Origin: an uncultured beta proteobacterium
GTDB taxonomy: Bacteria > Pseudomonadota > Gammaproteobacteria > Burkholderiales > SHXO01
Assembly: GCA_963827575.1 (NCBI GenBank)
Contig: CAWHCG010000048.1
Location: 197,018 to 261,017 of the forward strand
Reading direction: 5' to 3'
Length of the DNA: 64,000 nucleotides
Part shown: one piece after another, positions 4,671 through 55,686 of the stretch
Numbering within the stretch: position 1 is the first letter of the stretch
How the letters are laid out: every line of letters begins with the position of its first letter
Translations under genes and position numbers: made by a program
Notes under the pieces: generated by a model
What the model was told of the DNA's origin: nothing
Seen by the model: the letters and a program-made list of their open reading frames with translations, nothing else
The model's database searches: none

Positions 4671-4763
4671 CAGGCGCGAGGCGCGAGGCGCCGGAGGCCC
4701 GTCACGAGGCCAGGCTCGATCTAGGGTTCGCATCTCGCGCCTCGCGCCTCGCGCCTCGCGCCT
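4671..4763. repeat. composite hairpin element, heptamer class (AGGCGCG / CGCGCCT units)
   Basis: The left arm is caggcgcgaggcgcgaggcgccggagg.. (4671-4710). A ~22 nt loop follows, then a right arm tctcgcg cctcgcg cctcgcg cctcgcg cct (4733-4763). It sits between the rlmJ start and the mazG-like stop and overlaps the TAG by 2 nt. Confidence 0.8.
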
Positions 4764-5118
4764 AGAGCTTGTCATACTTCGTCGCCCTGCCCTTCGCCTT
4801 CTCCACCGGGTACTTCTGGCGGTTGAGGTCGAGCTTCTTCCCGGCCACTGCGATCGGATCGACATCGAGCTTGTCGCACAGGCGCAGCAGGAACAGGAGC
4901 ACGTCGGCAATCTCCAGCTCCACTTCAGCCCGGGTTGCCGGCGCAAGATCGCTGCTCTGCTCCGGCGTGAGCCATTGGAAGTGCTCGACCAGCTCGCCGG
5001 CCTCCGCCACCAGCGCCATGGCGAGGTTCTTCGGCGTGTGGAACTGGTCCCAGTCGCGCTCGGCAACGAAGGCGCGCAGCTGTGCGCGCAGCGCTTCCAG
5101 CCGATCGGCGGGGTTCAT
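4762..5118 (-). CDS. MazG-type nucleotide pyrophosphohydrolase (small all-alpha NTP-PPase)
   Basis: 118 aa: ERDWDQFHTPKNLAMALVAEAGELVEHFQW..EVELEIADVLLFLLRLCDKLDVD, the typical MazG-like signature. Confidence 0.8.
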   Translation of the reverse strand: MNPADRLEALRAQLRAFVAERDWDQFHTPKNLAMALVAEAGELVEHFQWLTPEQSSDLAPATRAEVELEIADVLLFLLRLCDKLDVDPIAVAGKKLDLNRQKYPVEKAKGRATKYDKL

Positions 5119-5490
5119 GCCCCAGCCGCCAGTGCGCGTGCGTCACGCCGGCACGCGATCGGCTCACCCCTCCCGCCCTCGTGGAAACCGCGGGGAAGCC
5201 TGCCATTTGCTGGGTGAGCTGGCATGGAAGGGCCCTGCTACTTCACGCCGTGGCGCGCACGATAGTGCTTCTGCAGCAGCTTGCGCGTCTGCAGGTCCAG
5301 GCGCGGGTTGGGCGCCGGCGCACGGGCAGGGGATGGCGCCGGGGGGCGCGCAGCGGGTGCCTTCGCCTTGGCCACGAGTCGACTCCGGAGAAGAATGCAG
5401 CGAAGCATACCAGCAGCGCAGGGCGCAGGCCGCCGGAAGCGGGCTTTGTCAAGCGGGCCGGTGGCCAGTTAACGATCGAGAAGCGCCTTA

Positions 5491-5527
5491 CCCCTCACCC
5501 CGACCTGTCCCGCAAGGGGAGAGGGGG
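5491..5527. repeat. REP-like GC-rich hairpin (CCCCTC..GGGGAGAGGGG type)
   Basis: cccctcaccccgacctgtcccgcaaggggagagggggg. The outer stem is CCCCTC/GAGGGG and the inner stem TCCC/GGGA. Same motif family as 9214, 22211, 37686, 55555, 55648 and 56429. Confidence 0.7.
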
Positions 5528-5642
5528 GCGCCCGGTTCCCAGCAACGCAGGCCACCCATTTGCTCCGCTGAAATTTCGGCGGTAACATTCGTCGGCGCGG
5601 CACGACGCTGGCCCGCAACGTGCATCGCCGAAACTCAAAACC

Positions 5643-6261
5643 ATGTACCCCTTCAGACCTTCACGCTTGCCCATCCGGGCCCTTCAGCTGGCGGGGCTCG
5701 CGGCAGCCTTGCTGGCGGCTGCAGCCCCGCTGCGCGCCGATGAATCGAGCCTCGACGCCGGCCTGGGCTCTAGCCTGGCCCAACTGGAGAGGGCCGGCGC
5801 CAGCTGGCTCACCGCTGAGCAGCCAGCCCGGAACGCGCCCAATCCCAGCGGCGCCCGCACACTTGGTTGCGACCTGGCTGCCCGGCGGGTCCCCGGTCGC
5901 ACCAGGCCTGGCCCTGGAAGGCACCCGCGCCAGCTTTGTCACCGCCCTGCCGCCTGACGACACTCTGGTGGGCGACGCCGCCGAGCGGGCGGCTATCTGG
6001 GCGGTTTCCAGCGTGGGGTCGGTCCCATTGGACTCGTCGCTGTCCCTGTTTGCGCGCATCGGACTGCACTACCCCGAGGCTCGGGGGCAGGCCTCCCTGG
6101 CTCAAGTGGACGAACTGGGACGCGTCTATGGGGTGGGCCTGCGCTTCGCGCCGAACGAGCGCGTCGACCTGCGTGCCGAGATGCGGCGCTTCACCCGCGT
6201 GGGACCGGACGGCTCCACCGACGCCAGCGCAATGCTGTTCGGGGCTCGCGTACGCTTCTGA
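5643..6261 (+). pseudogene. outer-membrane beta-barrel-type protein, signal peptide and barrel in different frames
   Basis: The frame of 5643 gives a signal peptide, MYPFRPSRLPIRALQLAGLAAALLAAAAPLRA. The frame of 5620 gives the C-terminal part ..LSLFARIGLHYPE..GRVYGVGLRFAPNERVDLRAEMRRF..AMLFGARVRF with a terminal Phe. The shift lies somewhere in ~5770-5870 and could not be pinpointed. Confidence 0.4.
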
Positions 6262-6353
6262 AGCCCGCCGCGCCCGGCTCAGGCGTGGCCTCTGTGGTCA
6301 ATGCGTTTCTTGGCTAGAATGCGCTGCCAATTGACAACAACCCGGAGACCACG

Positions 6354-7214
6354 ATGCCCGCCCGCTTTCTGTTGCTCGCGCTTGCACTCGCCTTTTCGAC
6401 CGTCCTGCCGGCGAGCGCCGACGAGCTCAAGGGCACCCTCAAGCAGATCCGTGACAGCAAGAGCATCCGGCTCGGCTACCTGAAGACCGGGGTCCCGTTC
6501 TCGTTCGTCGATCAGGGCGTGCCACAAGGCTATTCGGTGGAGCTGTGCAAGCGCGTAGTGGGGGGCATCCAGCAGCAGCTCGGACTCGACGCCCTGAACA
6601 TCAGCTGGGTCGAGGTCGACGAGGCCACGCGCTTCGACATGGTGACGAGCGGCAAGATCGACCTGGAATGCGGCACGACCACCAACACCGTCTCGCGCCA
6701 GGAGAAGGTCGATTTCAGCCTGCCGATCTGGGTAGACGGCGCGACCTTCGTGGTCAAGGCCGACTCCGCCATCAAGACTCACGCCGACCTTGGCGGCAAG
6801 AAGGTCGCGGTCATGGCAGGCACCACCACCGAATCGGCGCTGAAACGGGCGCTTGCCAGCAGCTACGTCAACGCGGAAGTGATTCTGGTGAAATCACACG
6901 TCGATGGCCTCGAGCTGGTGTTCAAGGACAAGGCCGATGCCTACGCGTCCGACAACACGGTGCTCATCGGTTTGGCGCTGGCGGTGCGCCAAACCATGCA
7001 GCTGCGGTTCGGCGAGGCGATGTTCTCCTACGAGCCCTACGGACTGATGCTGCGCAAGGACGACGGCGACTTCCGGCGCGCGGTGAACCGCGTCCTCGCC
7101 GGCTTGTACCGCGGCGGTGCGATCAAAGAGATCTACATGCGCTGGTTCGGCAAGATCGGCGAGCCCACACCGCTGCTGGCCGCGATGTTCATACTGAACG
7201 CGCTGCCGGAGTAG
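6354..7214 (+). CDS. amino-acid ABC transporter substrate-binding protein (PBP type 3, Glu/Asp-binding-like)
   Basis: Signal peptide MPARFLLLALALAFSTVLPASA, then LKQIRDSKSIRLGY..GYSVELC..GKIDLECGTTTNT..REKVDFS..YGLMLRKDD, the typical family-3 SBP pattern. Confidence 0.85.
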   Translation: MPARFLLLALALAFSTVLPASADELKGTLKQIRDSKSIRLGYLKTGVPFSFVDQGVPQGYSVELCKRVVGGIQQQLGLDALNISWVEVDEATRFDMVTSGKIDLECGTTTNTVSRQEKVDFSLPIWVDGATFVVKADSAIKTHADLGGKKVAVMAGTTTESALKRALASSYVNAEVILVKSHVDGLELVFKDKADAYASDNTVLIGLALAVRQTMQLRFGEAMFSYEPYGLMLRKDDGDFRRAVNRVLAGLYRGGAIKEIYMRWFGKIGEPTPLLAAMFILNALPE

Positions 7215-9019: not shown

Positions 9020-9036
9020 ACCCACTGCAAGGAATT

Positions 9037-9319
9037 CACAGGATTAACAGGATCTCGTAGGATTGACAGGATTCTCCCCCAACATGCGAGGCCGAGGGTT
9101 CCTGCAATGTTGGCCGATCACACCCTGACACCGCCGCGCCGGCTGTATGTGCCCCTGCGTCAAGGACGGGCTGATCTGCGCACACGCTCGCGTCTGGCTA
9201 ATCTGATCTGCTCCTTCCCCCTCGCGAGGGGGAAGGCTGGGATGGGGGTGCGCGCAGAAGACTTTACGACACTCGCCGCACCTCGCAGTGGATCCTGTTA
9301 ATCCTGCGAAATCCTGATA
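9037..9319. repeat. composite hairpin element with CAGGATT-type units and a REP-like core
   Basis: Left arm cacaggattaacaggatctcgtaggattgacaggattc (9037-9074). Core hairpin CCTTCCCCC tcgcga GGGGGAAGG (9214-9236). Right arm gatcctgttaatcctgcgaaatcctgata (9291-9319). A 16-nt perfect match links caggattaacaggatc to gatcctgttaatcctg. Confidence 0.8.
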
Positions 9320-9352
9320 CCCGCTACCAGGCGATCGTGTCGACCTTGAGAG

Positions 9353-13231: not shown

Positions 13232-13275
13232 CCCGGCTGGTGCTTGTGTTCGCTGCGGTTTCCACTTATTATTGA

Positions 13276-13291
13276 TTGACCGGTCGGTCAA
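13276..13291. promoter_or_regulatory. candidate TetR(PaaR)-type operator upstream of paaG
   Basis: TTGACCG GT CGGTCAA: perfect 7+7 inverted repeat with a 2-nt centre, 52 nt upstream of the paaG ATG in an AT-richer patch (ttattattgattgacc). Confidence 0.45.
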
Positions 13292-13342
13292 CGAATTGAC
13301 AGGCGCCGCCACCATCGGCGGTTCACCTCGGAGCACACGCGG

Positions 13343-14140: not shown

Positions 14141-14144
14141 GCGC

Positions 14145-14588: not shown

Positions 14589-14638
14589 GCTGTGATCGGT
14601 GCACTTCTGCACTTCACGTGTCGCGCCATCGGTGCATT

Positions 14639-14691
14639 GGTTTCCTTGGCGTCCTTGGCGTCCTCATCGGGTCGGGCCTTGGCGGTGAGAG
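14639..14691. repeat. solitary right arm of a composite hairpin element (CCTTGGCGT units)
   Basis: ggtttccttggcgtccttggcgtcctcatcgggtcgggccttggcggtgagagc, with the usual inner GTTTCCT and outer GGCGGTGAGAG ends. No matching left arm was found between the paaI stop and this arm. Confidence 0.7.
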
Positions 14692-16048: not shown

Positions 16049-16202
16049 TTGAACCGCAGAGGCGCGGAGGCGCAGAGGTAGGAACTTAGAGGATGAAGGA
16101 TGGCAACCCCGGGTCTTCCCCGCTGGTCGATTGGGAGAAGGCGCACGACCGTATCAATGCTCTGGGTTGATTCCTCTGCGCCTCTGCGCCTCTGCGGTTC
16201 AA
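16049..16202. repeat. composite hairpin element (GCAGAGGCG units), paaK-paaA gap
   Basis: Left arm ttgaACCGCagaggcgcggaggcgcagaggtaggaac. Right arm gttgattcctctgcgcctctgcgcctctGCGGTtcaa. Spacer ~80 nt. Confidence 0.85.
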
Positions 16203-17247: not shown

Positions 17248-17415
17248 GCTCTCACCGCCAAGGACGCAAAGGACGCCAGAGGAAACACCGATCTTGAATA
17301 CCCAGCGCCGAGGTAGCTCGCCTGGACGACCGGCCAATTGCGTCATCAGCCATTGGACGAACGCAGTCCGCTCCCTGGCTTTCCTTGGCGTCCTTTGCGT
17401 CCTTGGCGGTGAGAG
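17248..17415. repeat. composite hairpin element (CCAAGGACG units), paaA-paaB gap
   Basis: Left arm gctctcACCGCcaaggacgcaaaggacgccagaggaaac. Right arm ctttccttggcgtcctttgcgtccttgGCGGTgagag. The arms are near-perfect complements and the spacer is ~92 nt. Confidence 0.9.
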
Positions 17416-17451: not shown

Positions 17452-17739
17452 ATGGATAGGAAAGAATGGCCGCTGTGGGAAGTGTTCATCCGCAGCAAGA
17501 GCGGTCTGGACCACAAGCACTGCGGCAGCCTGCACGCGCCCGACGCGAAGCTGGCGCTGCAGAACGCCCGCGACATCTACACGCGCCGGCTGGAAGGCGT
17601 GAGCATCTGGGTGGTGCGCGCGGATCACATCCACGCCTCCGACCCGGACGCCAAGCCCGAGCTGTTCGATCCGGCGGAGGACAAGATCTACCGGCATCCG
17701 ACCTTCTACAAGCTGCCGGATGAAGTGGATCACATGTGA
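17452..17739 (+). CDS. paaB: 1,2-phenylacetyl-CoA epoxidase subunit B
   Basis: 95 aa, WPLWEVFIRSKSGLDHKHCGSLHAPD..ARDIYTRR..IWVV, the typical PaaB pattern. Confidence 0.9.
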   Translation: MDRKEWPLWEVFIRSKSGLDHKHCGSLHAPDAKLALQNARDIYTRRLEGVSIWVVRADHIHASDPDAKPELFDPAEDKIYRHPTFYKLPDEVDHM

Positions 17740-17788
17740 GGGGTGAGGGGCTAGGGGCTGGGGAACTACGTTACTCTGGGCAATCGCG

Positions 17789-19035: not shown

Positions 19036-19044
19036 GACCAACCG

Positions 19045-19236
19045 CATTCACCGCAGAGGACGCAGAGGAATGCACAGACGAAAATGATCTGTCCCTGCAA
19101 GCAGCGAATTGCGAGCACGCTGAGCGGAGCCGCAGCAAAGAGAGCACCGCTAAGCCCGGCTCCCCCCGGACGAACGCTTGGTTCTGTCGCGCATTCCTCT
19201 GCGTTCCTCCGCGTCCTCTGTGCGTCCTCTGCGGTT
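19045..19236. repeat. composite hairpin element (GCAGAGGAC units), paaD-paaE gap
   Basis: Left arm gcattcACCGCagaggacgcagaggaatgc. Right arm gcattcctctgcgttcctccgcgtcctctgtgcgtcctctGCGGTt. Spacer ~116 nt. Confidence 0.85.
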
Positions 19237-19250: not shown

Positions 19251-20318
19251 GTGACACCAAGATTTCACACCTTGCGCATAGCCGAAGTGCGCCGCGAGAC
19301 CCCCGAAGCGGTGAGCCTGCGCTTCGAGGTGCCACGCGAGCTGGCGCCGGACTATGCTTTCACCCAAGGCCAGCACATCACGTTGCGCGCACGCCTCGAC
19401 GGCGAGGAGCTGCGGCGTTCCTATTCGATCTGCGCCGGGGTCGACGACGCGGAGCTGCGGGTGGCGATCAAGAAGGTGCCGGGCGGCATGTTCTCCACTT
19501 ACGCGAACACGAGCCTCAAGCGCGGGGACGCCATCGACGTGCTCACGCCGGAGGGGCGATTTCACACTGCACTCGACGCTGCCAGCCGCAAACACTACGT
19601 AGCCTTCGCAGCCGGCAGCGGCATCACCCCGGTGCTCTCGCTCATCAAGACCACCCTCAAGCGCGAACCACGCAGCCGTTTCACGCTGCTGTACGGCAAC
19701 CGCCGCGTGTCGACCGCGATGTTCCAGGAAGAGCTGGAGGACTTGAAGGATCGCTATCTCGACCGGCTGATCCTCTATAACCTGTTCAGTCGCGAGCATC
19801 AGGAAGTGGAGCTGTTCAACGGCCGCCTCGACGGCGGCAAATTGAAGGCCTTCGCCGGCGCGCTGCTGCCGGTGGATACGATCGACGAAGCCTTCGTCTG
19901 CGGTCCCGGCGCCATGCTCGACGAGCTCGAGCGTGCGCTGCGCGAGCTGGGCATGCCCCCCGAGCACATCCATCTGGAGCGGTTCGGGGTGCCCGGCAGC
20001 GAGACGGCGCATCACGTGGAGCCTGGAGATGCGGCGCAGGCGCACGTCACCATCATCCTCGACGGCGGCCGCCGGGAGGTCGAGTTCCATCGGGACGATG
20101 CCTCGCTTCTGGAGGCTGCGCTGCGCGACGGTCTCGATCTGCCCTACTCGTGCAAGGGCGGCATGTGCTGCACCTGCCGGGCCAGAGTCCTGGAAGGCAA
20201 AGTGCGTATGGACAAGAACTACAGCCTGGAGCAGCGCGACCTCGACGCCGGCTTCGTGCTGGCGTGCCAGGCGCATCCGCTCACCGACCGCGTCGTTCTC
20301 AGCTACGACGAGCGCTAG
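19251..20318 (+). CDS. paaE: 1,2-phenylacetyl-CoA epoxidase reductase subunit (FNR-like + plant-type 2Fe-2S)
   Basis: FHTLRIAEVRRET..RSYSIC (FAD-binding RxYS), GSGITP (NAD binding), C-terminal CKGGMCCTCRARVLEG..LACQA 2Fe-2S motif. Confidence 0.85.
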   Translation: MTPRFHTLRIAEVRRETPEAVSLRFEVPRELAPDYAFTQGQHITLRARLDGEELRRSYSICAGVDDAELRVAIKKVPGGMFSTYANTSLKRGDAIDVLTPEGRFHTALDAASRKHYVAFAAGSGITPVLSLIKTTLKREPRSRFTLLYGNRRVSTAMFQEELEDLKDRYLDRLILYNLFSREHQEVELFNGRLDGGKLKAFAGALLPVDTIDEAFVCGPGAMLDELERALRELGMPPEHIHLERFGVPGSETAHHVEPGDAAQAHVTIILDGGRREVEFHRDDASLLEAALRDGLDLPYSCKGGMCCTCRARVLEGKVRMDKNYSLEQRDLDAGFVLACQAHPLTDRVVLSYDER

Positions 20319-20322
20319 AGAA

Positions 20323-20476
20323 GCGCTCACCGCCAAGGACGCAAAGGACGCCAAGGAAGACGACAGACATGCGTGACCTCGAATCCCACCGCTTGTGTCT
20401 ACCAAGTGGTCCGTTCCACTGCCGCAGACGTTTTTCGTTCTTCCTTGGCGCCCTTGGCGTCCTTGGCGGTGAAAGG
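20323..20476. repeat. composite hairpin element (CCAAGGACG units), paaE-TetR gap
   Basis: Left arm gcgctcACCGCcaaggacgcaaaggacgccaaggaagac. Right arm gttcttccttggcgcccttggcgtccttgGCGGTgaaagg. Spacer ~75 nt. Confidence 0.9.
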
Positions 20477-20494
20477 TTTCGGCAGTAAATAGCC

Positions 20495-21109
20495 ATGGCT
20501 AGAACCAGAGCACCGACGTTCGACCAGCAGCGCGCCAGCATCCTGCAGGCGGCGGCCAGCCTGTTCGCGCAGCGCGGCTTCGAGGGCGCATCCATGGCCG
20601 AACTGGCCCGCGCGTGCGGGGTCTCCAAGGGCCTGCTGTACCATTACTACCGCGACAAGCAGCACATCCTGTTCGACATCGCCGACAGCTACATGGACCG
20701 GCTGCTGGCCAGTGCTGCGCAGGTGCGCAGCCGCAAGCTGCCGGCCGAGGAGAACCTGCGCGCGCTGATCGCCCGCTTCATGCGGGAGTACCAGCATTCC
20801 CAGCCGCAGCACATGGTGCTGGTGCAGGACGTGAAATTCCTGGCAGACTTGCAGCGCGCCCAGGTGCTCGGCAAGGAGCGCGAGGTGGTCGACGCCTTCG
20901 CGCAGGCGATTGCCGCGCTCAAGCCACGCCTGCGCAAGAAGGCGCTGCGGGTGCCGCTGGCGATGATCCTGTTCGGGATGATCAACTGGACCTTCACCTG
21001 GCTGCGGCCCGAGGGGCCGCTGTCCTACGAGGACATGGCGCAGGTGGTAGCGGAGATCTTTCTACGCGGAGTCGTCGATACCGCGGCAGCGCAACAGCGT
21101 GCCGCATGA
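20495..21109 (+). CDS. TetR/AcrR family regulator (PaaR-like by position)
   Basis: ILQAAASLFAQRGFEGASMAELARACGVSKGLLYHYYRDKQHIL is a TetR HTH. The PaaR role is inferred only from its location directly after paaE. Confidence 0.75.
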   Translation: MARTRAPTFDQQRASILQAAASLFAQRGFEGASMAELARACGVSKGLLYHYYRDKQHILFDIADSYMDRLLASAAQVRSRKLPAEENLRALIARFMREYQHSQPQHMVLVQDVKFLADLQRAQVLGKEREVVDAFAQAIAALKPRLRKKALRVPLAMILFGMINWTFTWLRPEGPLSYEDMAQVVAEIFLRGVVDTAAAQQRAA

Positions 21110-22133: not shown

Positions 22134-22136
22134 CAG

Positions 22137-22372
22137 CAGGCGCGAGGCACGAGGCTCGAGGCGCGAGAGGTGCGGCCTTGACAGCGCATTCGGAAGGGCC
22201 GCCGAGTGCCCCCTCTCCCCTTGCGGGAGAGGGCTGGGTGAGGGGCCGACACATCGGAACCGCTACCAGCAGGCTCGAGATCGGCCCCGCGCGTCGCCAT
22301 CGCGCGCGCACGTCGCGCCTCGCGCCTCGCGCCTCGCGCTTGCTCGCGCCTCGCGCCTCGCGCCTCGCGCCT
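22137..22372. repeat. composite hairpin element, heptamer class (AGGCGCG / CCTCGCG) with REP-like core
   Basis: Left arm caggcgcgaggcacgaggctcgaggcgcgagagg (22137-22172). Core CCCTCTCCC cttgc GGGAGAGGG (22211-22233). The right arm has ~8 CCTCGCG units (22311-22372). It fills the convergent gap to within 3-4 nt of both stop codons. Confidence 0.85.
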
Positions 22373-22375
22373 GGG

Positions 22376-24999: not shown

Positions 25000-25033
25000 C
25001 AAGGCGCAGAGAACGCGCAAAGGCGAGGACCGT
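25000..25033. repeat. solitary left arm of a composite hairpin element
   Basis: aACCaaggcgcagagaacgcgcaaaggcgaggacc lies directly after the Uma2 stop. No convincing right arm was found downstream. Confidence 0.55.
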
Positions 25034-29426: not shown

Positions 29427-30182
29427 TCAGGAGAGCACCGGCTGCGCATGAAACGTCGCGCCGGTCCCCAGGTACACAGCCTGCACCTCGGGATTGTCGC
29501 GGACCTGTGCCGGCGAACCCTGGGCAATGATCTGGCCGCGCGTGAGCACCAGGACATGCTGCGCATAGGTGAAGACCATGTCCATGCTGTGCTCGGTGAA
29601 CAGCACCCCGAGATCGCGCTCGCGCGCGAGCTCGGCGGTCAACGCCATCAGCTCGTTGCGCTCCTTCGGTGCCATGCCTGCGGTGGGCTCATCCATCAGC
29701 AACAACTTCGGGTCATGGGCAAGGGCCATGGCGAGCTCCACGCGCTTGACGTCACCGTAAGCCAGCAGGCCGCAGGGGCGTTCGGCCTGCTCCGCCATCC
29801 CGACCCAGTGCAGTAGCGACAGCGCTTCGTCGCGATAGCGCTCGCCGGCACGCGACCATAGGTCGAACAGCCGCCTGGCACGAGACAGCAGCACCAACTG
29901 AACGTTCTCGCGCACCGTCATCGACGCGTAGGTGGCCGCCACCTGAAAGGTGCGCCCGACGCCGCGCTTCCAGATCTCGCGTGGCGGACGGCCGGTCATG
30001 TCGACCCCCTCGAGCCTGACGGTGCCGCTGTCGGGTTCGAGCTGGCCGTTGAGCAAGTTGAAGCAGGTCGACTTCCCCGCACCGTTGGGGCCGATCAGCG
30101 CCACAAGCTGCCCGCGCTCGAGTGTAAACGACACCTCGCGCACGGCCTGCACGCCGCCGAAGGACTTGGAGAGGTTGGCCAC
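29427..30182 (-). CDS. ABC transporter ATP-binding protein, LivG-like
   Basis: IGPNGAGKSTCFN, YGDVKRVELAMALA, LLLMDEPTAGM. GTG start. Confidence 0.85.
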   Translation of the reverse strand: MANLSKSFGGVQAVREVSFTLERGQLVALIGPNGAGKSTCFNLLNGQLEPDSGTVRLEGVDMTGRPPREIWKRGVGRTFQVAATYASMTVRENVQLVLLSRARRLFDLWSRAGERYRDEALSLLHWVGMAEQAERPCGLLAYGDVKRVELAMALAHDPKLLLMDEPTAGMAPKERNELMALTAELARERDLGVLFTEHSMDMVFTYAQHVLVLTRGQIIAQGSPAQVRDNPEVQAVYLGTGATFHAQPVLS

Positions 30183-30194
30183 CGCCAGCAGCGT

Positions 30195-31130
30195 TCACGC
30201 CTCCCGCCTCACAAAGCGCTGCACCGCGCCGCGCGATGCCCTGCGGGAACGCCACCACCATCAGGATGATCACCGCGCCCAGTATCAGCCGCCAGTAGTC
30301 GGTGCTGCGCATCACCTCCGTTTGCAAGGCGTGATAGGCGGCAGCGCCCACGACCGGACCGCTCAGGGTCTGCAGCCCTCCCAGCAGCACCATGACCAGC
30401 GCATCGACCGACTGCGGTATGGCAAGCACCGTGGGGAAGACATTGCCCTGGTGATACGCGTGGAGCGCACCCGCCAGCGCGGCCGCCGCACCCGCCAGCA
30501 CGAACGCCGCCCATTGCTGGCGGCGCACGTCGATGCCGATCGCCTCCGAGCGCAGCGGCGAGTCCCTGCCCGCCCGCAACGCGTAACCGAAGGGCGAGAA
30601 GATCACCCGCCGCAGCAGGATCAGGCTCGCTGCCGACCACCGCCAGCGTGAAATAGTAGTAGGCCGTCGTCGAAGCCGAGCCAGGCGGGCGGCCATACCC
30701 CGAGGATACCGTTGTCGCCGCCGGTCCAGCCCGCTGTGAAAGCTACCGACCAGACGATCTGCGCGAAGGCGAGCGTGAGCATGGCCAGATAGACGCCGGA
30801 CAGACGGATGCAGAACCAGCCGAACAGGACTGCAACCGCCGCGGCGGCGAGCGGTGCGGCCGCCAGGTTGACCGGCATGGGCGAGGCCGCATGTTTGACC
30901 AGCAGCGCGCAGGCATAGGCGCCGATGCCGAAGTAGACGGCGTGGCCGAAGGACACGAGCCCGCCGATGCTCATGATGAAATGCAGGCTGGCGGCGAACA
31001 GCGCGAGGATCATGATCTCGACGCTCACGAGCTGCGCGTACTCGCCGGCGAGAACCGGCAGGAGCAGAAGAATCGCCAGCAGCAGCATTGCAGCGGCCAG
31101 CACCGGCCGGCTCGCAGGACAGATGGGCAA
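30195..31130 (-). pseudogene. branched-chain-type ABC permease, LivM-like, about three frame breaks
   Basis: N-terminal part in ORF 30621..31130 and middle part in the frame of ORF 29752..30696 (SPFGYALRAGRDSPLRSEAIGIDV..). Two 1-nt shifts lie at ~30640-30680. A further one at ~30228-30234 restores the typical end ..FPQGIAGAVQRFVRREA* (TGA 30195). Confidence 0.7.
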
Positions 31131-31131
31131 C

Positions 31132-32042
31132 TCAGCCGATCTGCGGCGCGACGCGCGGGCGCGCCTCCGGCTTGCCCAGCAGCCCGTAGGGCCGGATCAC
31201 CAGCACCACCGCCATGACCAGGAAGGTCAGCACCAGGGTGAGCTGCGGGAAGATGAGGATGCCGAAGGCGGACAGCAGGCCAACCAGCAGCGCTGCCAGG
31301 AAGGCGCCGGTCACGCTGCCCATCCCGCCAATCACCACCACCACGAAGGCCTCGGCGATGACGTGAATGTCCATCTGCAGGTTCACCGCTTCCTTGGGGA
31401 TCTGCAGCGCACCGCCCAGTCCGGCTAGGAACGAGCCGAGGAACAGCACGCTGGTGAACAGCCACCGCTCGTTTACCCCCAGCGCGCCGGCCATCTCCCG
31501 ATCCTGGGTGGCGGCGCGCACCAGCACGCCCCAGCGCGTGCGGTGGAACAGCAGCCACAGGACGCCCAGCACGATGGGCCGAGCACGATCAGGAACAGGT
31601 GATATTGCGGGAAGCGCTCGCCGAGGATCTCCACGGTTGCCCTCAGACCCGGGGCGCGCGGGGCGAACAGGTCCTCCCGGCCCCAGATGGCGAGCGCGGC
31701 ATCCTGCACCACCAGCACCACCCCGAAGGTGGCCAGCAGCTGGAACAGCTCGGGCGCACGGTAGATCCGTCGCAGCAGCAGGATCTCCATCGCCACCCCG
31801 ACGACGCCCACTGCCGCAGCGGCAAGCACGATCCCGGTCCAGAAGCCCACCGGTGCGCCGAACCGCTCCATCAGGAACCCGCTCGCGCTGTAGGCCGCGT
31901 AGGCACCCAGCATGTAGAACGACCCATGGGCGAAGTTCACGATGCGGGTCACACCGAAGATGATCGACAGACCCGATGCGACCAGGAAGAGGGTCGCGGC
32001 GTGGGACAGGCCGGTGAGGAACTGGATGAGGAAGACGGTCAC
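31132..32042 (-). pseudogene. branched-chain-type ABC permease, LivH-like, one frame break
   Basis: From GTG 32042: MTVFLIQFLTGLSHAATLFLVASGLSIIFGVTRIVNFAHGSFYMLGAY... The frame then changes at the GGG run 31576-31578 into ..IVLGVLWLLFHRTRWGVLVRAATQDREMAGALGVN.. Confidence 0.8.
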
Positions 32043-32050: not shown

Positions 32051-32249
32051 AAGGCGGGAGGCGCCTGCCCGTGAGGCGGTGAGGCGGGAGGCGAGGCGTC
32101 CCCCAACACTGCTGGTGAGGCGGGAGGCGGGAGGCGGGAGGCGTCCCCCTCACCCCGCCTCTCTGAACGGGGAGAGGGAGGATGCGGGTTATCTATCACC
32201 TAGAACGCCTCACTCGCTCACGCCTCACGCCTCTACGCCTCACGCGCCT
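32051..32249. repeat. composite hairpin element, heptamer class (AGGCGGG/AGGCGTG vs CCTCACG) with REP-like core
   Basis: Two left blocks (32051-32104, 32115-32149) of ggcggga/gtgaggc units. Core ccccctcaccccgcctctctgaacggggagagggagg (~32145-32181). Right arm gcctcactcgctcacgcctcacgcctctacgcctcacgcgcct (32207-32249), abutting the SBP stop. Confidence 0.85.
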
Positions 32250-33440
32250 ACTTCATCGCCTCCACCGGCCGCTTCTTCCTCACCACGCATCCGCTCGGCA
32301 TGTAGTCCTTGCCGTCGGCGTAGCGCCAGTCCACCATGACGCCCTTGTTGCCCTTCAGGTCGAGCTTGCCGACAAAGGCCCAACGTGGATTGCTGGTCGA
32401 TTGCGCGAAAGGTGATGGGGCCGAACACGGTGTCGATCGTCAGGCCGCGCAAGGCCTTGATCAGCTTCTCGGGGTCGGTGGAGCCCGCTTTCCTGAGGGC
32501 CTCGGCGATCGCCATGAAGGTGGTGTAGCCCACCACCGAACCCAGACGCGGTGTGTCGTTGAAGCGTTTCTCGTAGGCCTGCACGAACTTCTGGTGCACC
32601 GGGGTCTTGATCTGTTCCCAGGGATAGCCGGTGACGATCCAGCCCACCGGGGTTTCGTCCTTGAGCGGGTCGAGGTACTCCGGCTCGCCCGACAGCATGC
32701 TGACCACCGCGCGATCCTCGAACAAGCCGCGCAAGTTGCCCTCGCGCACGAACTTGGTCAAGTCGGCGCCGAACGTGACATTGAAGATCGCATCGGGCCT
32801 GGCCGCGGCCAGCGCCTGCACCGTCGCACCCGCCTCCAGCTTGCCCAGCGCCGGCCACTGCTCCTCGACGAACTCGACGTCCGGCCGCTTCGCCTTCAGC
32901 AGGGCCTTGAAGCTCGCCACCGCCGATTGTCCGTACTCGTAGTTGGGCGCCACCGTCGCCCAGCGTTTGGCCGGGAGCTTGGCCGCCTCCTCCGCCAGCA
33001 TGGCCGACTGCATATAGGTGCTCGGACGCAGCCGGAAGGTGTAGCGGTTGCCCTTCTCCCACACCAGCGCATCGGTGAGCGGCTCGGCCGCGACGAACAC
33101 GACCTTGTTGCGCAGGGCGATGTCGCTGACCGCAAGCCCGACGTTGGACAGAAAGGTCCCGGCGAGCAGGTCGACCTTCTGGCTCGCGAGCAGCTCGCTG
33201 GCATGCCGGGTCGCATCGTCCGGCTTGCCGCCGTCATCGCGCGAGATCACTTCCAGCCTGCGCCCCAGCACCCCGCCCGCGGCGTTCACCTCCTCCACCG
33301 CCAGCTCCCAGCCGTTGCGGTAGGGGATCGTGAACGCAGGCACGGTGGAGTAGCTGCTGATCTCGCCGATGCGGATCGGGCTGCTGCGCATGCGCGGCTG
33401 TGAGATCAGCACCAGCGCGCCGAGTGCAATCGCTCGTCAT
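32248..33440 (-). pseudogene. Liv-type (PBP type 1) ABC substrate-binding protein, frame broken near both ends
   Basis: The body is in ORF 32240..33412 (PIRIGEISSYSTVPAF..NGWELAVEEVNAAGGVLGRRLEV..). The C-terminus continues after a 1-nt shift at ~32377-32382 as AFVGKLDLKGNKGVMVDWRYADGKDYMP..VEAMK* (TAG 32248). The likely ATG 33440 (MTS..) is also one frame off the IALGALVLI signal segment. Confidence 0.7.
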
Positions 33441-33465: not shown

Positions 33466-33631
33466 CACCGCCAAGGACGCCAAGAACGCAAAGGAAAACC
33501 AGAGTCTGTTTCGACAAGCGCTAACACCCTTGCGCCATTGACGACGCTGGTGTCAAGGCGCGTCGCGGATCGCCTTTTCAGCGCATCCCTGCTTCTCGGT
33601 TCTCTTGGCGTCCTTGGCGTCCTTGGCGGTG
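33466..33631. repeat. composite hairpin element (CCAAGGACG units), SBP-ligase gap
   Basis: Left arm cACCGCcaaggacgccaagaacgcaaaggaaaacc. Right arm ggttctcttggcgtccttggcgtccttgGCGGTg. Spacer ~97 nt. Confidence 0.9.
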
Positions 33632-35956: not shown

Positions 35957-36060
35957 TCAACCGCAGAGGCGCAGAGAACACCTGTTTGCTGGTGACGCCG
36001 GGGCCAGTGTTCGTGCCATATGCATTTTCCTCTGCGAGCCTCTGCGCCTGTGCGGTTGGA
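35957..36060. repeat. composite hairpin element (GCAGAGGCG units), short copy
   Basis: Left arm tcaACCGCagaggcgcagagaacac. Right arm ttttcctctgcgagcctctgcgcctgtGCGGTtgga. Spacer ~43 nt. It lies between the two amino-acid-synthesis-family paralogs. Confidence 0.85.
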
Positions 36061-37561: not shown

Positions 37562-37857
37562 CCGTGAGGCGGGAGGCGGGAGGCGGGAGGCGTCCGATCG
37601 CGTGAGGGGAGGCGGGAGGCGGGAGGCGTCCCCCGATACTGCTGCGTGAGCGGGAGGCGGGAGGGGGAGGGTCCCCTCACCCCTGCCCTCTCCCCCGTGA
37701 ACGGGGGAGAGGGAGTATGCTGTTGGGCTGCTTCAGTAACGGATTGACGCCTCACGCCTCACGCACTCGAACGCCTCACGCCTCACGCCTCACGCCTCAC
37801 GCCTCACGCCTCACGCCTCACGCCTCACGCCTCACGCCTCACGCCTCACGCCTCACG
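37562..37857. repeat. composite hairpin element, largest copy: AGGCGGG blocks, REP-like core, GCCTCAC x12 array
   Basis: Left blocks 37562-37670. Core CCCTCTCCCCC gtgaac GGGGGAGAGGG (37686-37713, 11-bp perfect stem). Right arm GCCTCAC x2 (37749-37763) and an uninterrupted x12 run (37773-37857), ending 3 nt from the stop at 37861. Confidence 0.9.
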
Positions 37858-37860
37858 GTT

Positions 37861-39344: not shown

Positions 39345-39562
39345 GAACCGCCAAAGCAACACAGAGGAAACTTGAACGGTCCTCCAGCGAAAATCTGAAT
39401 GGGCCGCCAAGACGCCAAGACGCCAAGGAAACCAATACAGACTCTCTCGCAACCATACGCACAGGGAACCCCGAAGGAGATGCAGGGCTGTTCTTGGCGT
39501 CTTGGCGTCTTGGCGGCCATTCAGGTTTTCCCTCGTGTCTTGGCGTATGGGTTCTTGGCGGC
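39345..39562. repeat. nested/double composite hairpin element (CCAAGACG octamer units)
   Basis: Outer left gaACCGCcaaagcaacacagaggaaac (39345-39371). Inner left ctgaatgggCCGCcaagacgccaagacgccaaggaaacc (39395-39433). Inner right gttcttggcgtcttggcgtcttgGCGGccattcag (39490-39524). Outer right gttttccctcgtgtcttggcgtatgggttcttGGCGGc (39525-39562). Confidence 0.85.
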
Positions 39563-47652: not shown

Positions 47653-47834
47653 ACAACCAAAGGCGCCAAGGCACAGAGACGCCAAGGAGTCATACACGAG
47701 CACCCACAGCGTTGGCGCAGCCTTGTCCTTGGGCTGCCAGCGATGGCTAGCCGGCCCCTGCTGAGCCACCTTTGCGCCTTTGCGTCTTTGCGGCTTTGCG
47801 ATCCTCGCCGGCTCTCTGTGTCCTCTGTGGCTGC
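47653..47834. repeat. degenerate composite hairpin element (CAAAGGCGC units), ATPase-permease gap
   Basis: Left arm acaACCaaaggcgccaaggcacagagacgccaaggag. The right arm is cctttgcgcctttgcgtctttgcggctttgcg plus ctctctgtgtcctctgtgg. The arms match less well than in other copies. Confidence 0.65.
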
Positions 47835-50824: not shown

Positions 50825-50965
50825 ATTTCGCGTCCTTCGAGGCGCACTCGGCGAGTTCCCTTTTGCGCGCCCAAGACAGCCTAGTTGCGGCGTCCTGAGG
50901 ACAGTAGTAATCTCGACACCGCTTGGTGGGCTGCTCGAGGCCCGCCCGCTCTCGGGGAGGAAACG

Positions 50966-52677: not shown

Positions 52678-52682
52678 GCGAT

Positions 52683-53294
52683 ATGACGAGCCTGATGATC
52701 TCGAACGCCCTGCTGTGGGTCCTGATGCTGGCGGTGATCGTGGCCCTGTGGGCCCTGGCGCGCCAGGTGGGGATCCTGTACGAGCGCATCGCGCCCATGG
52801 GAGCGCTGGTGACCGACGCGGGACCGAAGCTCGGCGACAAAGCGCCGGTTTTCGAGCTCCCCGCGCTCAATGGGACGCTGGTGGGCATCGGCGGAGAGCG
52901 CCCCAAGAGCCAGCTCATCTTCTTCCTGTCGCATAACTGCCCGGTGTGCAAGAAGCTGCTGCCGGTGCTCAAGTCGGCCTCGCAGGCGGAGCGCGAGTGG
53001 CTCGACGTGGTGCTGGCGAGCGACGGCGACTCCACCCAGCACCTGGGCTTCTACGGTGAGGCCAAGCTCCAGCAGTTCCCCTATGTGCTGTCGGCGGACC
53101 TGGGCATGACCTACCGGGTCAGCCGGCTGCCTTACGCCGTATTGATCGACGAGCGCGGAGTGATCCGCGCCAAAGGGCTGGTGAACTCCCGCGAGCATCT
53201 GGAAAGCCTGTTCAACGCCAAGGAGCTGGGGGTAGGCACGGTGCAGGACTATATCCGCGACCGTGTCGGCGCGCAGCCCGGTGAGACTGCTTGA
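52683..53294 (+). CDS. mauD: MauD-like thioredoxin-fold protein
   Basis: An N-terminal TM segment, then KAPVFELPALNG..LIFFLSHNCPVCKKLLP (CxxC) ..RLPYAVLIDERGVIRAKG. Confidence 0.8.
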   Translation: MTSLMISNALLWVLMLAVIVALWALARQVGILYERIAPMGALVTDAGPKLGDKAPVFELPALNGTLVGIGGERPKSQLIFFLSHNCPVCKKLLPVLKSASQAEREWLDVVLASDGDSTQHLGFYGEAKLQQFPYVLSADLGMTYRVSRLPYAVLIDERGVIRAKGLVNSREHLESLFNAKELGVGTVQDYIRDRVGAQPGETA

Positions 53295-53335
53295 ATCCGT
53301 AACGTAGGCCCGAATCCGCAAAACTAGCAGGAGGG

Positions 53336-53881
53336 GTGAACATGACGCTCTTCGAAACATGGCTTGATCGCTTCACCGAGCGCCGCGTGCGCCGAGCCGC
53401 ACAGTTGACCGGCCGCCGCAGCGCGGTGGCCAAGGTGGGCGCGGCGCTGGTGGGTAGCGCCGTGCTGCCGATGCTGCCCTTCGACCGCTCGGGCCGGGCC
53501 TATGCCCAGCACGGGGGCGCCGGCGGCGGCAAGGCCGAGGATCCGATGGCCTGCGAGTACTGGCGCAACTGCGCACTGGACGGGTTCATGTGCGGCTGCT
53601 GCGGCGGCTCTGCGACGGCTTGCCCGCCGGGTTCCGTGGTCTCCAAGGTGAGCTGGGTGGGCACCTGCAAGAATCCGAAAGACGGCACCGCCTATCTGGT
53701 GAGCTACAACGACTGCTGCGGCAAGACCGCCTGCGCCCGTTGCCTGTGCAACTTCAACGAGGGCGAGCGGCCGGGCTATCGCATGGGCGTGTTCAACGAC
53801 ATCAACTGGTGCATGGCCAACACTCAGACCATGTACCACTGCACGGTGTCGGTGGTGGTGGGCGTATCGGATGCCGCATGA
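53336..53881 (+). CDS. mauA: TTQ-dependent amine dehydrogenase small (light) subunit, MauA/AauA family
   Basis: A long leader (..RRSAVAKVGAALVGSAVLPMLPF) and a Cys-rich mature part, ACEYWRNCALDGFMCGCCGG..SWVGTCKNP..SYNDCCGKTACARCLCN..INWCM. Confidence 0.85.
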   Translation: MNMTLFETWLDRFTERRVRRAAQLTGRRSAVAKVGAALVGSAVLPMLPFDRSGRAYAQHGGAGGGKAEDPMACEYWRNCALDGFMCGCCGGSATACPPGSVVSKVSWVGTCKNPKDGTAYLVSYNDCCGKTACARCLCNFNEGERPGYRMGVFNDINWCMANTQTMYHCTVSVVVGVSDAA

Positions 53882-54335
53882 GGGGCCCGCAGCGTTAGCC
53901 GGTTTAGCTCTGACCCTCGCGGCCGCCACCGCGAGTGCGCAGGATACGAGCGGCAGCGGCGTGTTTGTTCAGGCCTGCGCCCCCTGCCACCAGCCCGACG
54001 GCAGCGGGACGCCGGGTTATGCCCCGCCCGTGAAGGGTGCGTACTGGCAGAGGCTGCTCGCCGAGCGCAGCTATCTGCCGCGCGTCATCGCATTCGGCTT
54101 GACCGGTCAGATCAAAGTCGGCGAGTCGGTGTTCAGTGGCGGCATGGCCGGGCAGACTCAGCTCACCGATGAGCAGGTCGCCGCCGTCGCCAATCATGTC
54201 GCCTCCGGGCTGAACGCCGGCCAATTGCCTCCCGGCTGGAAGCCCTACGATGCAGCGGAGGTGGCCGGGGTCCGCGGGACTGCACGCGGCAGCGCCGAGC
54301 AGCGGCAACTCCGTAAGCAGGCCCTCGCGCCATGA
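53871..54335 (+). CDS. monohaem c-type cytochrome
   Basis: Signal peptide ..LALTLAAATASAQD, one CxxCH (CAPCH), and a distal Met candidate in ..SGGMAGQ.. It overlaps the mauA end by 11 nt. Confidence 0.75.
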   Translation: MPHEGPAALAGLALTLAAATASAQDTSGSGVFVQACAPCHQPDGSGTPGYAPPVKGAYWQRLLAERSYLPRVIAFGLTGQIKVGESVFSGGMAGQTQLTDEQVAAVANHVASGLNAGQLPPGWKPYDAAEVAGVRGTARGSAEQRQLRKQALAP

Positions 54336-54781
54336 ATGCGCGCCGTGCCGGCGCGCTCGCCGGTGTGCTGCTCGCCGCCACGGCGCCCTGCGGGCTGGCG
54401 GATGTCAAGGTCTACCAGGGCAGCGAGCACGACTACGTGCTGCATTGTTCAGGCTGCCACTCCATGGACGGCAGCGGCCATCCCGACTTCGGGGTTCCCG
54501 ATTTCCGCAATCAGATCGGGTATTTCCTTCGCCTGCCGGAAGGTCGCGCCTTTCTCATGCAGGTCCCTGGCCTGCTGAGCGCGGGCCTGTCGGATGATCG
54601 CAGGGCCGCGGTCACCAACTACGTCATCAAGACCTTTTCGGGAGATTCGCTCCCGCAGGACTTCCTCCCCTACACCGCCGACGAGGCGAAGCGCTACCGC
54701 GAGAACCGGCCGGCCGACGTCGCGGCCAGGCGGGTCCAGCTGTACCAGCAGCTCAACGGGCTCGGGTACGCACTCAAGTGA
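54332..54781 (+). CDS. monohaem c-type cytochrome
   Basis: Signal peptide MNARRAGALAGVLLAATAPCGLA and one CxxCH (CSGCH). The ATG overlaps the previous stop (ATGA). Confidence 0.7.
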   Translation: MNARRAGALAGVLLAATAPCGLADVKVYQGSEHDYVLHCSGCHSMDGSGHPDFGVPDFRNQIGYFLRLPEGRAFLMQVPGLLSAGLSDDRRAAVTNYVIKTFSGDSLPQDFLPYTADEAKRYRENRPADVAARRVQLYQQLNGLGYALK

Positions 54782-54906
54782 CGCTCGAGGCATTCAGCGA
54801 ACATCGGCTCGGTTGAACTAGCCAGCGCGCCTCCGCTCTGAGCTATTGGAACATGCCCCCAGGCATGTCGGCTGCCGCCGTGCGGCTCTACATCACCCAC
54901 CATTCC

Positions 54907-55356
54907 ATGCTCAAGCACCTCGCCAAGCTCCTCTCCGGATCCCAGGACGTATCCGCGCCGCCCTTCGAGCAGCAAGGGCTGGAGAGTGCGGTCGCCACCC
55001 TGCTGTACGAGATGACGCGCATGGACACCGAGGTCAAGGCAGTGGACCTCCAGGCGGCACGCGCCGCGCTCGCGGATCTGCTCGGTCTCGACAGGCAACG
55101 GGCCGATGCGCTGCTGGAGGAAGCCGGGCACAAGGTCGGCCGTCTTACTTCCTACTTTGCGCCGGTGTCCGTCATCAACCGCCATTTCGAAATGGACCAG
55201 CGCATCCGCTTCGTCGAGCACATGTGGCGCGTCGCCTACGCCGACGGCGGGCTGGACCAATACGAAGACCATCTGGTGCGCAAGATCTCGCACCTGCTCT
55301 ACGTGCCTCACGTTCAAGGCATGCTGGCCCGCCAGCGCGCTCGCGGCGCCGCTTGA
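54907..55356 (+). CDS. TerB-family (tellurite-resistance-like) protein
   Basis: From the internal ATG: MLKHLAKLLSG..ATLLYEMTRMDTEV..FVEHMWRVAYADGGLDQYEDHLVRKISHLL, the pattern I associate with small TerB-family proteins. Confidence 0.6.
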   Translation: MLKHLAKLLSGSQDVSAPPFEQQGLESAVATLLYEMTRMDTEVKAVDLQAARAALADLLGLDRQRADALLEEAGHKVGRLTSYFAPVSVINRHFEMDQRIRFVEHMWRVAYADGGLDQYEDHLVRKISHLLYVPHVQGMLARQRARGAA

Positions 55357-55410
55357 CTACCGCCTGAGGCGGGACATCTGGCGTAGCGGCGCCTCAAGAG
55401 CGAACCCCAT

Positions 55411-55686
55411 TCATCCGCAGAGGATGCCGAGGACCGCAGAGGAGGATCGCTAACCTCAGCGACCACGAAGGTCACGAAGGAACACGAAGAAGGCTCTCTC
55501 GTGCTGGTCGATTTGCGGGCCGCCTTGGTGGCTCTATCTGCCCCCTCTCCCCAGCCCTCTCCCACGAGGGGAGAGGGGCCCGCAGCGGCGTTTCCGCCGT
55601 CACTGTGACCGGGCACCAGTGGAAACTACGGGAGAACCACCGAAACTCCCTCTCCCCTTGTGGGAGAGGGTTGGGGGAGAGGGGGA
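55411..55686. repeat. repeat jumble: two different left arms without partners plus two REP-like hairpins
   Basis: cCGCagaggatgccgaggaccgcagaggagg (55411-55445). gaccacgaaggtcacgaaggaacacgaagaagg (55460-55494). CCCTCTCCC acga GGGGAGAGGG (55555-55577). CCCTCTCCC cttgt GGGAGAGGG (55648-55670). Confidence 0.75.

Follow-up and report, generated by a model that had tools for sequence, protein, structure and literature searches.

Inverted pairs of short tandem arrays form dispersed, arm-matched foldback elements in the intercistronic gaps of an uncultured Burkholderiales bacterium

A 64,000-nt stretch of contig CAWHCG010000048.1 from an uncultured beta proteobacterium (Burkholderiales), referred to below as the window, is populated by foldback elements whose two arms are tandem arrays of short units in inverse orientation. 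On balance, we interpret these elements as a lineage-specific family of REP/STRR-like foldback repeats (a purine-rich 7-9-nt array, a spacer that evolves without visible constraint, and a reverse-complement array) that was dispersed and then vertically inherited, in which slippage alters the number of units and purifying selection on pairing preserves the stem, probably with the help of arm-to-arm copying. The elements occupy the interval from a stop codon to the following ribosome-binding site or stop codon, for the most part within operons. They have been copied to many loci and were then inherited vertically for longer than synonymous-site saturation takes. Substitutions in one arm are matched in the other, and both unit-number polymorphism and duplication of a whole element are seen.

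The composite, hairpin-forming architecture had been reported in a preliminary description of the window, and a purine-rich tandem array, a spacer and a reverse-complement array are indeed present at the coordinates catalogued below. Tandem Repeats Finder and our own detector return arrays of 2-15 copies whose period is 7, 8 or 9 nt, and repeat tools independently rank the elements as the longest inverted repeats of the window. A strict detector (an array, a spacer of at most 350 nt and a reverse-complement array of the same period) recovered six elements from the window, and 20 Markov shuffles yielded none. A second detector, for inverted repeats with periodic arms, recovered eight from the window, and 79 other Burkholderiales paa loci, 1.30 Mb in all, yielded none. 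When the copies were folded, as had been suggested, 12 of 13 full copies beat dinucleotide-preserving shuffles (z -3 to -13 with RNA and DNA parameters), and the folds pair the left arm with the right arm (the first 30 nt with the last 45 nt). For example, the region 20315-20500 folds at -95.5 kcal/mol (z -8.4). The degenerate copy at 47653-47834 folds weakly (z -0.3 for RNA, -0.7 for DNA). On a single strand the two arrays form a stem of 20-45 bp, closed by a loop (the spacer) of 25-236 nt. The elements total 2,644 nt, or 4.1% of the window, at a density of about one per 4 kb.

The window derives from a metagenome-type contig, and some related long-read contigs have frameshifts, both of which could be taken to favor an assembly or polishing artefact, or chance in a GC-rich genome. 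We give this explanation almost no weight. At least 15 independent metagenome assemblies, from short and from long reads, have these elements at the same positions, which excludes an assembly artefact. The sites are also filled in many independent short-read JGI and ENA assemblies, which differ by single nucleotides and by one unit-number polymorphism. Chance is countered by the absence of any element from the shuffles and from the 1.3 Mb of other GC-rich Burkholderiales loci.

Related metagenome contigs were gathered using the TetR-family regulator of the paa cluster (paaR) and an AA_synth protein. They comprise the lineage sets L081-L087 plus L099; L088-L096 plus L180; L097, L098, L179 and L181; and L182 plus L183, the close lineages from the paaR scan being those among the matches listed. 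The same architecture is found at orthologous gaps in the window, L081, L088, L097, L098, L179 and L182. Between lineages, identity at four-fold degenerate sites is only 0.52-0.73, a value near saturation given this codon bias, and orthologous spacers are no more alike than shuffled sequence except in the closest pair, the window and L179. The arms, in contrast, stay conserved. At the AA_synth site (element 35957; copies are named here by an approximate start coordinate), the right arm matches at 18 of 18 bases, and the element is kept in L182 with an unrelated spacer.

Units that differ between lineages differ in both arms. In the gap between paaK and paaA the unit is CGCAGAGG in the window and CACAGAGG in L081, in both arms. 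Between paaD and paaE it is CGCAGAGGA in the window and L179, CACAGAGGA in L088, L098 and L097, and CACGAAGGA in L081, and between paaE and paaR the unit core is CCAAGG, CAAAGG or CAGAGG by lineage; each of these variants is mirrored in the right arm. In a hand-anchored alignment of 10 stems, 9 of 22 pairs have changed on both sides, with 26 double-change cells versus two G·U cells. Pairing holds in 89.5% of the cells, versus 36-51% after the 3' partner has been shifted by 1-3 columns, and the covariation score of the alignment is not attained in any of 500 shuffles. Fixed differences include almost no one-sided intermediates. The untrimmed paaD-paaE gaps of six lineages (MAFFT and RNAalifold) recover the same long-range stem of 35 pairs, with compensatory changes in 11 of the 35. 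Thus, the orthologous comparison supports a stem maintained by selection and/or arm-to-arm copying, the two explanations put forward in the preliminary description. The order of unit variants (CCAAGG then CAAAGG) is the same between paralogous sites and between lineages, and the AGGAC core of the 9-mer units is invariant.

At three sites, CCAAGG of the window corresponds to CAAAGG in L081, and CGC is changed to CAC at two L081 sites. A genome-wide concerted change of units, as a co-evolving trans factor might impose, is not claimed, because the ancestral arrays already contain both variants side by side and CGC is retained elsewhere in these genomes; the evidence for it is too weak.

Within the window, all left arms were compared with all reverse-complemented right arms. 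Complementarity averages 22 on the diagonal and 10 off it, and none of 100,000 permutations reaches the observed sum. The copies fall into about six related unit families, {4671, 22137}, {32051, 37562}, {17248, 20323, 33466, 14639}, {16049, 19045, 35957}, 9037, 39402 and 47653. Arms are interchangeable inside {17248, 20323, 33466}, {16049, 19045, 35957}, {4671, 22137} and {32051, 37562}, where complementarity across copies equals that within copies. Unit designs are also related: the 8- and 9-mers consist of C(G/A)C and a purine run and the 7-mers of GAGGCG(C/G/T), with CAGGATT as an exception. The earlier statement that the unit differs between copies was therefore too strong. Likewise, co-variation specific to each pair of arms, as first described, holds at orthologous gaps and not within the window, where it is a family-level property (the arms of 17248, 20323 and 33466 cross-pair equally well). 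Because family arms are interchangeable, the window alone would have failed to separate within-copy from between-copy complementarity.

Purifying selection on pairing would keep the stem, probably helped by hairpin-templated copying. We infer this from the stem mismatches, whose spectrum is symmetric between the strands and not RNA-like. Counted along the direction of transcription, G·U and A·C mismatches number 14 and 17, respectively, over 715 stem positions, and the isolated internal mismatches of the stems include 13 G·U, 14 A·C and 21 of transversion type. These mismatches look like unfiltered mutational input. Pairing that is selected only in RNA should raise G·U over A·C, and a classical RNA-structure constraint is thus disfavored. 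A strand-symmetric constraint fits copying of one arm to the other on a hairpin template and/or selection that acts on a structure open to either strand; a role in RNA is compatible with it as well.

Most likely, the closed stem folds the insert out of the intercistronic path. In the folded transcript, the distance from stop to start would be about 20-30 nt, compared with 9-26 nt in element-free relatives. If an arm stayed unpaired, a long single strand rich in purines or in C would be exposed, which is probably costly, and such a cost would explain selection for closure. The intercistronic stem-loop probably acts as has been proposed for REP/BIME or STRR hairpins, in mRNA 3'-end protection, processing or translational coupling. 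We do not propose a role as a terminator or promoter.

Several points weigh against this interpretation. Function is deduced from placement only. The orthologs are few (5-6 lineages) and related, and the alignment of 10 stems was anchored by hand. The RNA signature, an excess of G·U over A·C on the sense strand, is absent. In 32051 and 37562, left units of GAGGCGG face right units of ACGCCTC, and this leaves a systematic G·A mismatch in every unit. The solo arm at 14639 has been retained with no partner, and so have its orthologs in L179 and L081; thus, pairing cannot be the sole preserver of the arrays. There is no clear target-site duplication at the junction between the MoCo-binding dehydrogenase (MoCoBD) gene and the 482-aa gene (window versus L182), the one filled/empty junction compared closely. 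No transposase or Y1 (RAYT) domain was found among the listed Pfam hits for genes in about 150 kb of relatives, bar one DDE transposase (L089), nor next to elements among the flanking genes of the window, where genes were only partly scanned with Pfam.

The last two points bear equally on a different explanation, that the elements are purely selfish, mobile foldback MITEs (miniature inverted-repeat transposable elements) without gain for the host. The units would then be subterminal sites of a trans-acting transposase (RAYT-like or other), and the arms would match because both ends must bind the same protein. We consider both the selfish origin and this account of the matching arms unlikely. 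In their favor, arms of one family are near-identical at unrelated loci. The elements 32051 and 37562 are homologous over their full length, including the spacer (spacer z 17), and lie at unrelated loci, from which it follows that whole elements have been copied; other members of the same family have unrelated spacers. One element is nested in another (39345), presence and absence differ among lineages, and element density differs strongly between related lineages. The architecture is also that of the terminal inverted repeats of eukaryotic Foldback/Galileo elements, as described in PMC3573991. On the other side, the arms of selfish elements should decay as the spacers do, yet they are conserved and compensated despite near-saturated synonymous sites. 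Furthermore, the junction lacks a clear target-site duplication, no transposase or RAYT gene was seen in the regions just named, and several proteins would be required to serve the at least 10 different units.

The purine-rich arm precedes the other in 34 of 36 elements, compared with 66:43 in ordinary inverted repeats, and this polarity of arm order is real. More distant lineages have the same architecture with further units (CGTGAYT, GTGAAAAG, CACGAAGA, CGTGAATGT, CACCGAGA and GCGGATY). Distant element-bearing lineages, among the matches listed in the metagenome scan with paaR, are L107, L108 and L168.

Relatives differ in the presence, size and completeness of the elements. Within one population, the left arm in the paaE-paaR gap has three or four copies of CACCAAGGA with an unchanged right arm (L092 and L095 versus L088-L094). 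Unit number therefore varies by entire units, which are gained or lost in the way expected from slippage. Compact gaps without an element occur in L181 (13-51 nt at four sites, including 13 nt between paaE and paaR), in L183 (11 nt at the 35957 site) and in L182 (9 nt where the window has the nested element 39345). Also in L182, a collapsed remnant lies at the 33466 site and a solo (GGCGCGA)n array lies where the window has the full composite 37562. At the paaB-paaC site, L081 and L088 have just one GTGAGGGG seed, the window has a solo array of four units, and L097 has a complete (AGGGGCT)n hairpin; it is possible that these states form a growth series.

Such a series would be expected if the elements originated in place, with a seed just after a stop codon expanded by slippage, an inverted array made by template switching, and arms kept identical by intrastrand repair, without a transposase or a host function. 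The solo array of L182, the gain of a unit in one arm within a population, the stem mismatches without wobble preference (as in unfiltered mutation) and the double changes with almost no one-sided intermediates all agree with this explanation, which we nevertheless regard as decidedly improbable. A few unit families recur at many unrelated loci, as local seeds would not predict, and 32051 and 37562 share a spacer. Conversion alone does not slow the divergence of units between lineages, yet units are conserved, and the retained order of variants (CCAAGG then CAAAGG) argues against rapid turnover in the paired part. A related proposal is of a transposase-independent, self-organizing repeat that combines slippage from a seed, a template-switched partner, arm-to-arm conversion and a lineage-specific molecular drive on all units and on both arms at once; this, too, seems quite unlikely. 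If it were correct, dispersed families with a conserved architecture and drifting sequence would arise without mobile-element machinery, and such repeats could be co-opted as intercistronic structural modules in operons.

A further explanation is that the arrays act by forming a G-quadruplex or i-motif, or as sites for one sequence-specific protein (CsrA-like on RNA, ribbon-helix-helix on DNA). Non-B structures were proposed for the heptamers of Xanthomonas and Nostoc, and Xanthomonas GGGAATC arrays form G-quadruplexes in vitro (PMC4692102). Here, tracts of G3-4 occur in the GAGGCGG and AGGGGCT units, the AGGAC core of the 9-mers is invariant, and solo arrays persist without a partner. This explanation is very unlikely, given that a G3-type motif is present in only three of 17 window elements (in one of them possibly in the nested hairpin) and that the units (CGTGATT, GTGAAAAG, CGTGAATGT, GCGGATY, CACGAAGA, CCAAGGACG and GAGGCGG) are too diverse for one protein. 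In addition, periods of 7, 8 and 9 nt coexist, and compensatory covariation points to a duplex stem.

The preliminary description could not place the elements in a known repeat family. For families that are defined by sequence this stands: across the whole window, Rfam gave no match at the gathering threshold, and its E-value mode gave only a spurious MIR6462 (33 bits versus a gathering threshold of 96). The architecture, however, has precedents in Xanthomonas and in the cyanobacterial STRR sequences. X. campestris and X. axonopodis have 183-186 (GGGAATC)n arrays, 70-75 of them per genome as convergent inverted pairs (PMC4692102). These arrays are 89-93% intergenic, lie on average 28 nt from the upstream open reading frame, are mostly between co-oriented and rarely between divergent genes, and are 83% position-conserved between the two species with variable unit number (PMC4692102). 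Compared by description, they share with the present elements the succession of array, spacer and reverse-complement array, the convergent, purine-first orientation, the intergenic placement after genes and between co-oriented genes, and the conserved position with variable unit number. They differ in that Xanthomonas has one G-rich heptamer at an estimated one pair per 70 kb, whereas here at least six families of 7-9 nt occur at about one element per 4 kb. Most units here cannot form G3 quadruplexes (the G3 motif is limited to the three of 17 elements), and neither compensatory arm evolution nor concerted unit change has been described in Xanthomonas. In cyanobacteria, STRR heptamers form intercistronic hairpins, for example between hupS and hupL, with proposed and untested roles in transcript stability or translational coupling (PMC2670836). 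The likeness lies in 7-bp units in tandem, able to form a hairpin between genes that are transcribed together. Most STRR arrays are single and direct, whereas in the window paired inverted arrays, with spacers of 60-230 nt, are the rule; the phylum and the units also differ. Thus, of the features of this descriptively defined Xanthomonas/STRR class, the tandem arms, the convergent inverse array and the intergenic placement between co-oriented genes are present here, and the G-rich quadruplex unit (GGGAATC/GGGGAYT) is not shared, as most units contain GG at most or no run of G. A review of prokaryotic satellites covers 6-8-nt satellites of Burkholderia and not inverted pairs, and the literal string GGGAATC returned only primers in a literature search.

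Other systems are less similar. The likeness to REP, BIME and REPIN sequences is in abundant extragenic hairpins after stop codons, between co-directional or convergent genes, with several families per genome (PMC3733652, PMC2817692, PMC3116915). Hypothesized effects of REP/BIME are on mRNA stability, supercoiling and transcription termination (PMC3733652, PMC2817692, PMC3116915), and the REP itself is an imperfect palindrome of 20-40 bp that carries a conserved GTAG or CGTC tag at one end (PMC3733652). We rejected assignment to REP/BIME: the arms here are non-palindromic tandem arrays without such a tag, with outer ends of ACCGC...GCGGT or AGGCG...CGCCT. A REPIN consists of two inverted REPs, and here no RAYT gene was seen in the regions inspected, which comprise 64 kb of a 267-kb contig and 20-kb pieces of relatives. 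Eukaryotic Foldback elements (Drosophila FB and Galileo) have long inverted termini of short tandem repeats, variable arm lengths and a variable middle (PMC3573991). Those elements are of kilobase scale and some copies contain a transposase, whereas here there is no coding capacity between the arms; nothing links the two. Like MITEs, the present elements are small, non-coding inverted-repeat elements in intergenic DNA, and they have inverted ends; no related insertion sequence was seen, there is no clear target-site duplication at the single junction compared closely, and mobility is deduced only from the homologous copies 32051 and 37562. Integron attC sites also conserve structure rather than sequence and follow each open reading frame in a co-directional array. 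This assignment was rejected too, as the outer ends read have no GTTRRRY/RYYYAAC cores and the context is a syntenic paa operon common to Burkholderiales rather than cassettes.

The window has a G+C content of 62-70% and encodes ordinary chromosomal genes. Among species-representative genomes, the best match to PaaA is 83% identical, from an uncultured Burkholderiales metagenome-assembled genome; one element-positive relative, L001, is found there. Gene context was taken from Pfam hits and from the gene tables of related contigs, and the window's own gene calls are approximate. In the paa cluster, where an element is present in five consecutive gaps, the paaK-paaA, paaA-paaB, paaD-paaE and paaE-paaR gaps are occupied, and another element follows the FAA-hydrolase gene. 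Elements also lie in the gaps of a minus-strand run of genes for a MoCo-binding dehydrogenase, an unknown 482-aa protein, an ApbE-like protein, two AA_synth proteins, an acyl-CoA ligase, a periplasmic binding protein and a permease. With these approximate gene calls, about 13 of 16 listed sites are between co-directional genes, three of 16 between convergent genes and none of 16 between divergent genes. In all 10 of 10 co-directional cases the array starts 0-9 nt past the stop codon of the upstream gene, and 7-53 nt separate the end of the right arm from the next start.

A scan of the window identified no U-tract terminators or sigma-70-like promoters coinciding with elements. The one terminator-like match near them is a small separate stem beside the solo arm 14639. 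We rejected an intrinsic (Rho-independent) terminator, given loops of 25-236 nt, the lack of a T run after the right arms and the lack of a terminator-like site on full elements. Peptide-coding arrays were rejected because 7- and 8-nt periods break the reading frame. A reading of the AGGA/GAGG cores as Shine-Dalgarno, anti-Shine-Dalgarno or CsrA motifs was dropped because CGTGATT, CACGAAGA, CGTGAATGT and CCAAGACG units lack such a core. There are no tRNA or tmRNA genes in the window, and one element used as a query had no match in the PLSDB plasmid collection.

The copies with 7-nt units begin at 4671-4763 (unit AGGCGCG; left arm about 4671-4698, right arm 4730-4763; z -5.4). This full element is flanked by two minus-strand genes, the MazG-like gene (stop codon 4762-4764) and the gene for RlmJ (GTG start at 4663); its array is 0 nt from the stop codon and its end is 7 nt short of the next start codon. 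The same unit forms the full element at 22135-22373 (z -5.4), after the FAA-hydrolase gene and between convergent genes, with four left units and about 12 right units and a CCCTCTCCCC..GGGAGAGGG hairpin nested at 22213-22231. GAGGCGG (left) and ACGCCTC (right) units make up the full elements at 32051-32251, which has two left arrays and a spacer hairpin related to the CCCTCTCC..GGAGAGGG family, and at 37562-37858. The latter is the largest copy (about nine left units in three blocks, 15 right units; z -8.8 RNA, -12.9 DNA), with a CCCTCTCCCCC..GGGGGAGAGGG hairpin nested at 37688-37711.

Full elements with the 8-nt unit CGCAGAGG are located at 16049-16202, between paaK and paaA (arms 16049-16094 and 16157-16202; z -9.7), and at 35957-36060, between the two minus-strand AA_synth genes (z -5.3). 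Those with 9-nt units are at 17248-17415, between paaA and paaB (CGCCAAGGA/CGCAAAGGA; z -11.1), where the outer stem is perfect (30 of 30, at 17249-17278 and 17386-17415); at 19041-19236, between paaD and paaE (CGCAGAGGA; z -4.1); at 20323-20476, between paaE and paaR (CGCCAAGGA; arms 20327-20360 and 20439-20472, 32 of 34; z -8.4); and at 33466-33631, between the minus-strand AMP-binding and periplasmic-binding-protein genes (CGCCAAGGA; z -7.7). The full element at 9030-9319 lies between convergent genes and has 9-10-nt units with CAGGATT (arms 9030-9074 and 9291-9319; z -3.8); its 216-nt spacer contains a GGGGGAAGG-type hairpin.

The coordinates of the preliminary list were confirmed, with two corrections: what had been counted as one copy at 39345-39562 is a nested pair, and a solo array at 17736-17763 had been omitted. 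In the nested pair (z -7.4), perfect 26-nt inner arms (39402-39427 and 39493-39518; 8-nt unit CGCCAAGA) lie in a degenerate outer element. The degenerate element at 47653-47834 has CAAAGGCG-type units and a right array of four CCTTTGCG at 47769-47800; its pairing is weak (z -0.3). Four further sites have solo arrays. The array at 17736-17763 (plus strand; GTGAGGG GTGAGGG GCTAGGG GCTGGGG) is purine-rich and begins inside the paaB stop codon. The solo right arm at 14639-14691, in the gap between the 4HBT gene and paaK, has TCCTTGGCG units ending in GCGGTGAGAG and is retained in L179 and in L081, where the units are CTTTGCG. A separate 8-nt tandem, two copies of TGCACTTC at 14600-14615, lies just upstream of this arm and is not complementary to it. 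The left-type purine-rich array at 25000-25033 (plus strand) is 3 nt past the stop codon of a Uma2 gene. At 55411-55494 (plus strand), two solo purine-rich arrays, three CGCAGAGGA-like units and then three CACGAAGG, occur without a right arm.

A second, unrelated family of small hairpins has the form CCCTCTCCC(N4-12)GGGAGAGGG, often followed by G-rich motifs such as CTGGGTGAGGGG. The pattern has four exact matches in the window versus 0.07 expected, at 22213-22231, 37688-37711, 55557-55575 and 55650-55668; related sequences are near 9215-9250 and 32150-32190, and in relatives at L081:18335-18375, L088:11495-11535 and L098:17900-18221. Two to four of the small hairpins are inside foldback spacers (22137 and 37562; probably 32051 and 9037), and two further ones form a 128-nt inverted pair at 55549-55676. 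This family looks like a REP-type element that inserts into foldback loops.

Also identified upstream of the enoyl-CoA hydratase gene of the paa cluster was a palindromic motif, TTGATTGACCGGTCGGTCAA, which is conserved in all lineages and triplicated in L179 (window 13240-13300; L081:2625-2660; L098:4060-4090; L179:2895-2960). The motif appears operator-like, and PaaR, of the TetR family, may be its regulator. A DDE_Tnp_1 insertion sequence (L089:3224-4387) follows paaR in one strain of the L088 lineage, where the downstream genes are replaced; it is the sole transposase seen at any fetched locus and is not associated with foldback elements. In L081, a direct duplication of about 80 nt (GCCGCATGAGCTACCTGGCGAGGGGCCCCAGCTTGCTGGGGATCGACAGTCAAGCGA twice; L081:2168-2355) lies between the FAD-monooxygenase and DUF2783 genes, which overlap in the window. 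An open reading frame at 55619-56425 (plus strand) has a partial match to T2SSE (PilT-like ATPase; profile positions 211-320 of 370) and a DUF1840 domain. Its 5' part overlaps the repeat-rich gap, and it may be a truncated or mis-called gene. The AT skew of 0.277 in the 2-kb bin 30001-32000 is several times that of any other bin in the window.

In summary, inverted pairs of 7-9-nt tandem arrays have been noted in Xanthomonas and cyanobacteria and never explained, and the elements described here belong to this known, poorly understood kind rather than to a new category. The present lineage is unusually dense and diverse in them, with about one per 4 kb, at least six unit families and several gaps of one operon occupied. 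New here are how diverse the units are (7, 8 and 9 nt), how densely the elements occur and that they fill several intercistronic gaps within an operon, as well as compensatory, strand-symmetric co-evolution of the arms with unit-number polymorphism and with gain and loss among natural relatives. For annotation, it should be considered that about 4% of such genomes is a structured non-coding repeat that matches no Rfam family here. Relatives that differ in presence, unit sequence, unit number and arm integrity make selection for the stem, whether on DNA or on RNA, testable, and the same relatives allow tests of how the arrays and their mirror copies originate and come to match. Also testable is the effect of a 20-45-bp intercistronic stem on operon expression, through processing, stability, coupling or protection from Rho.

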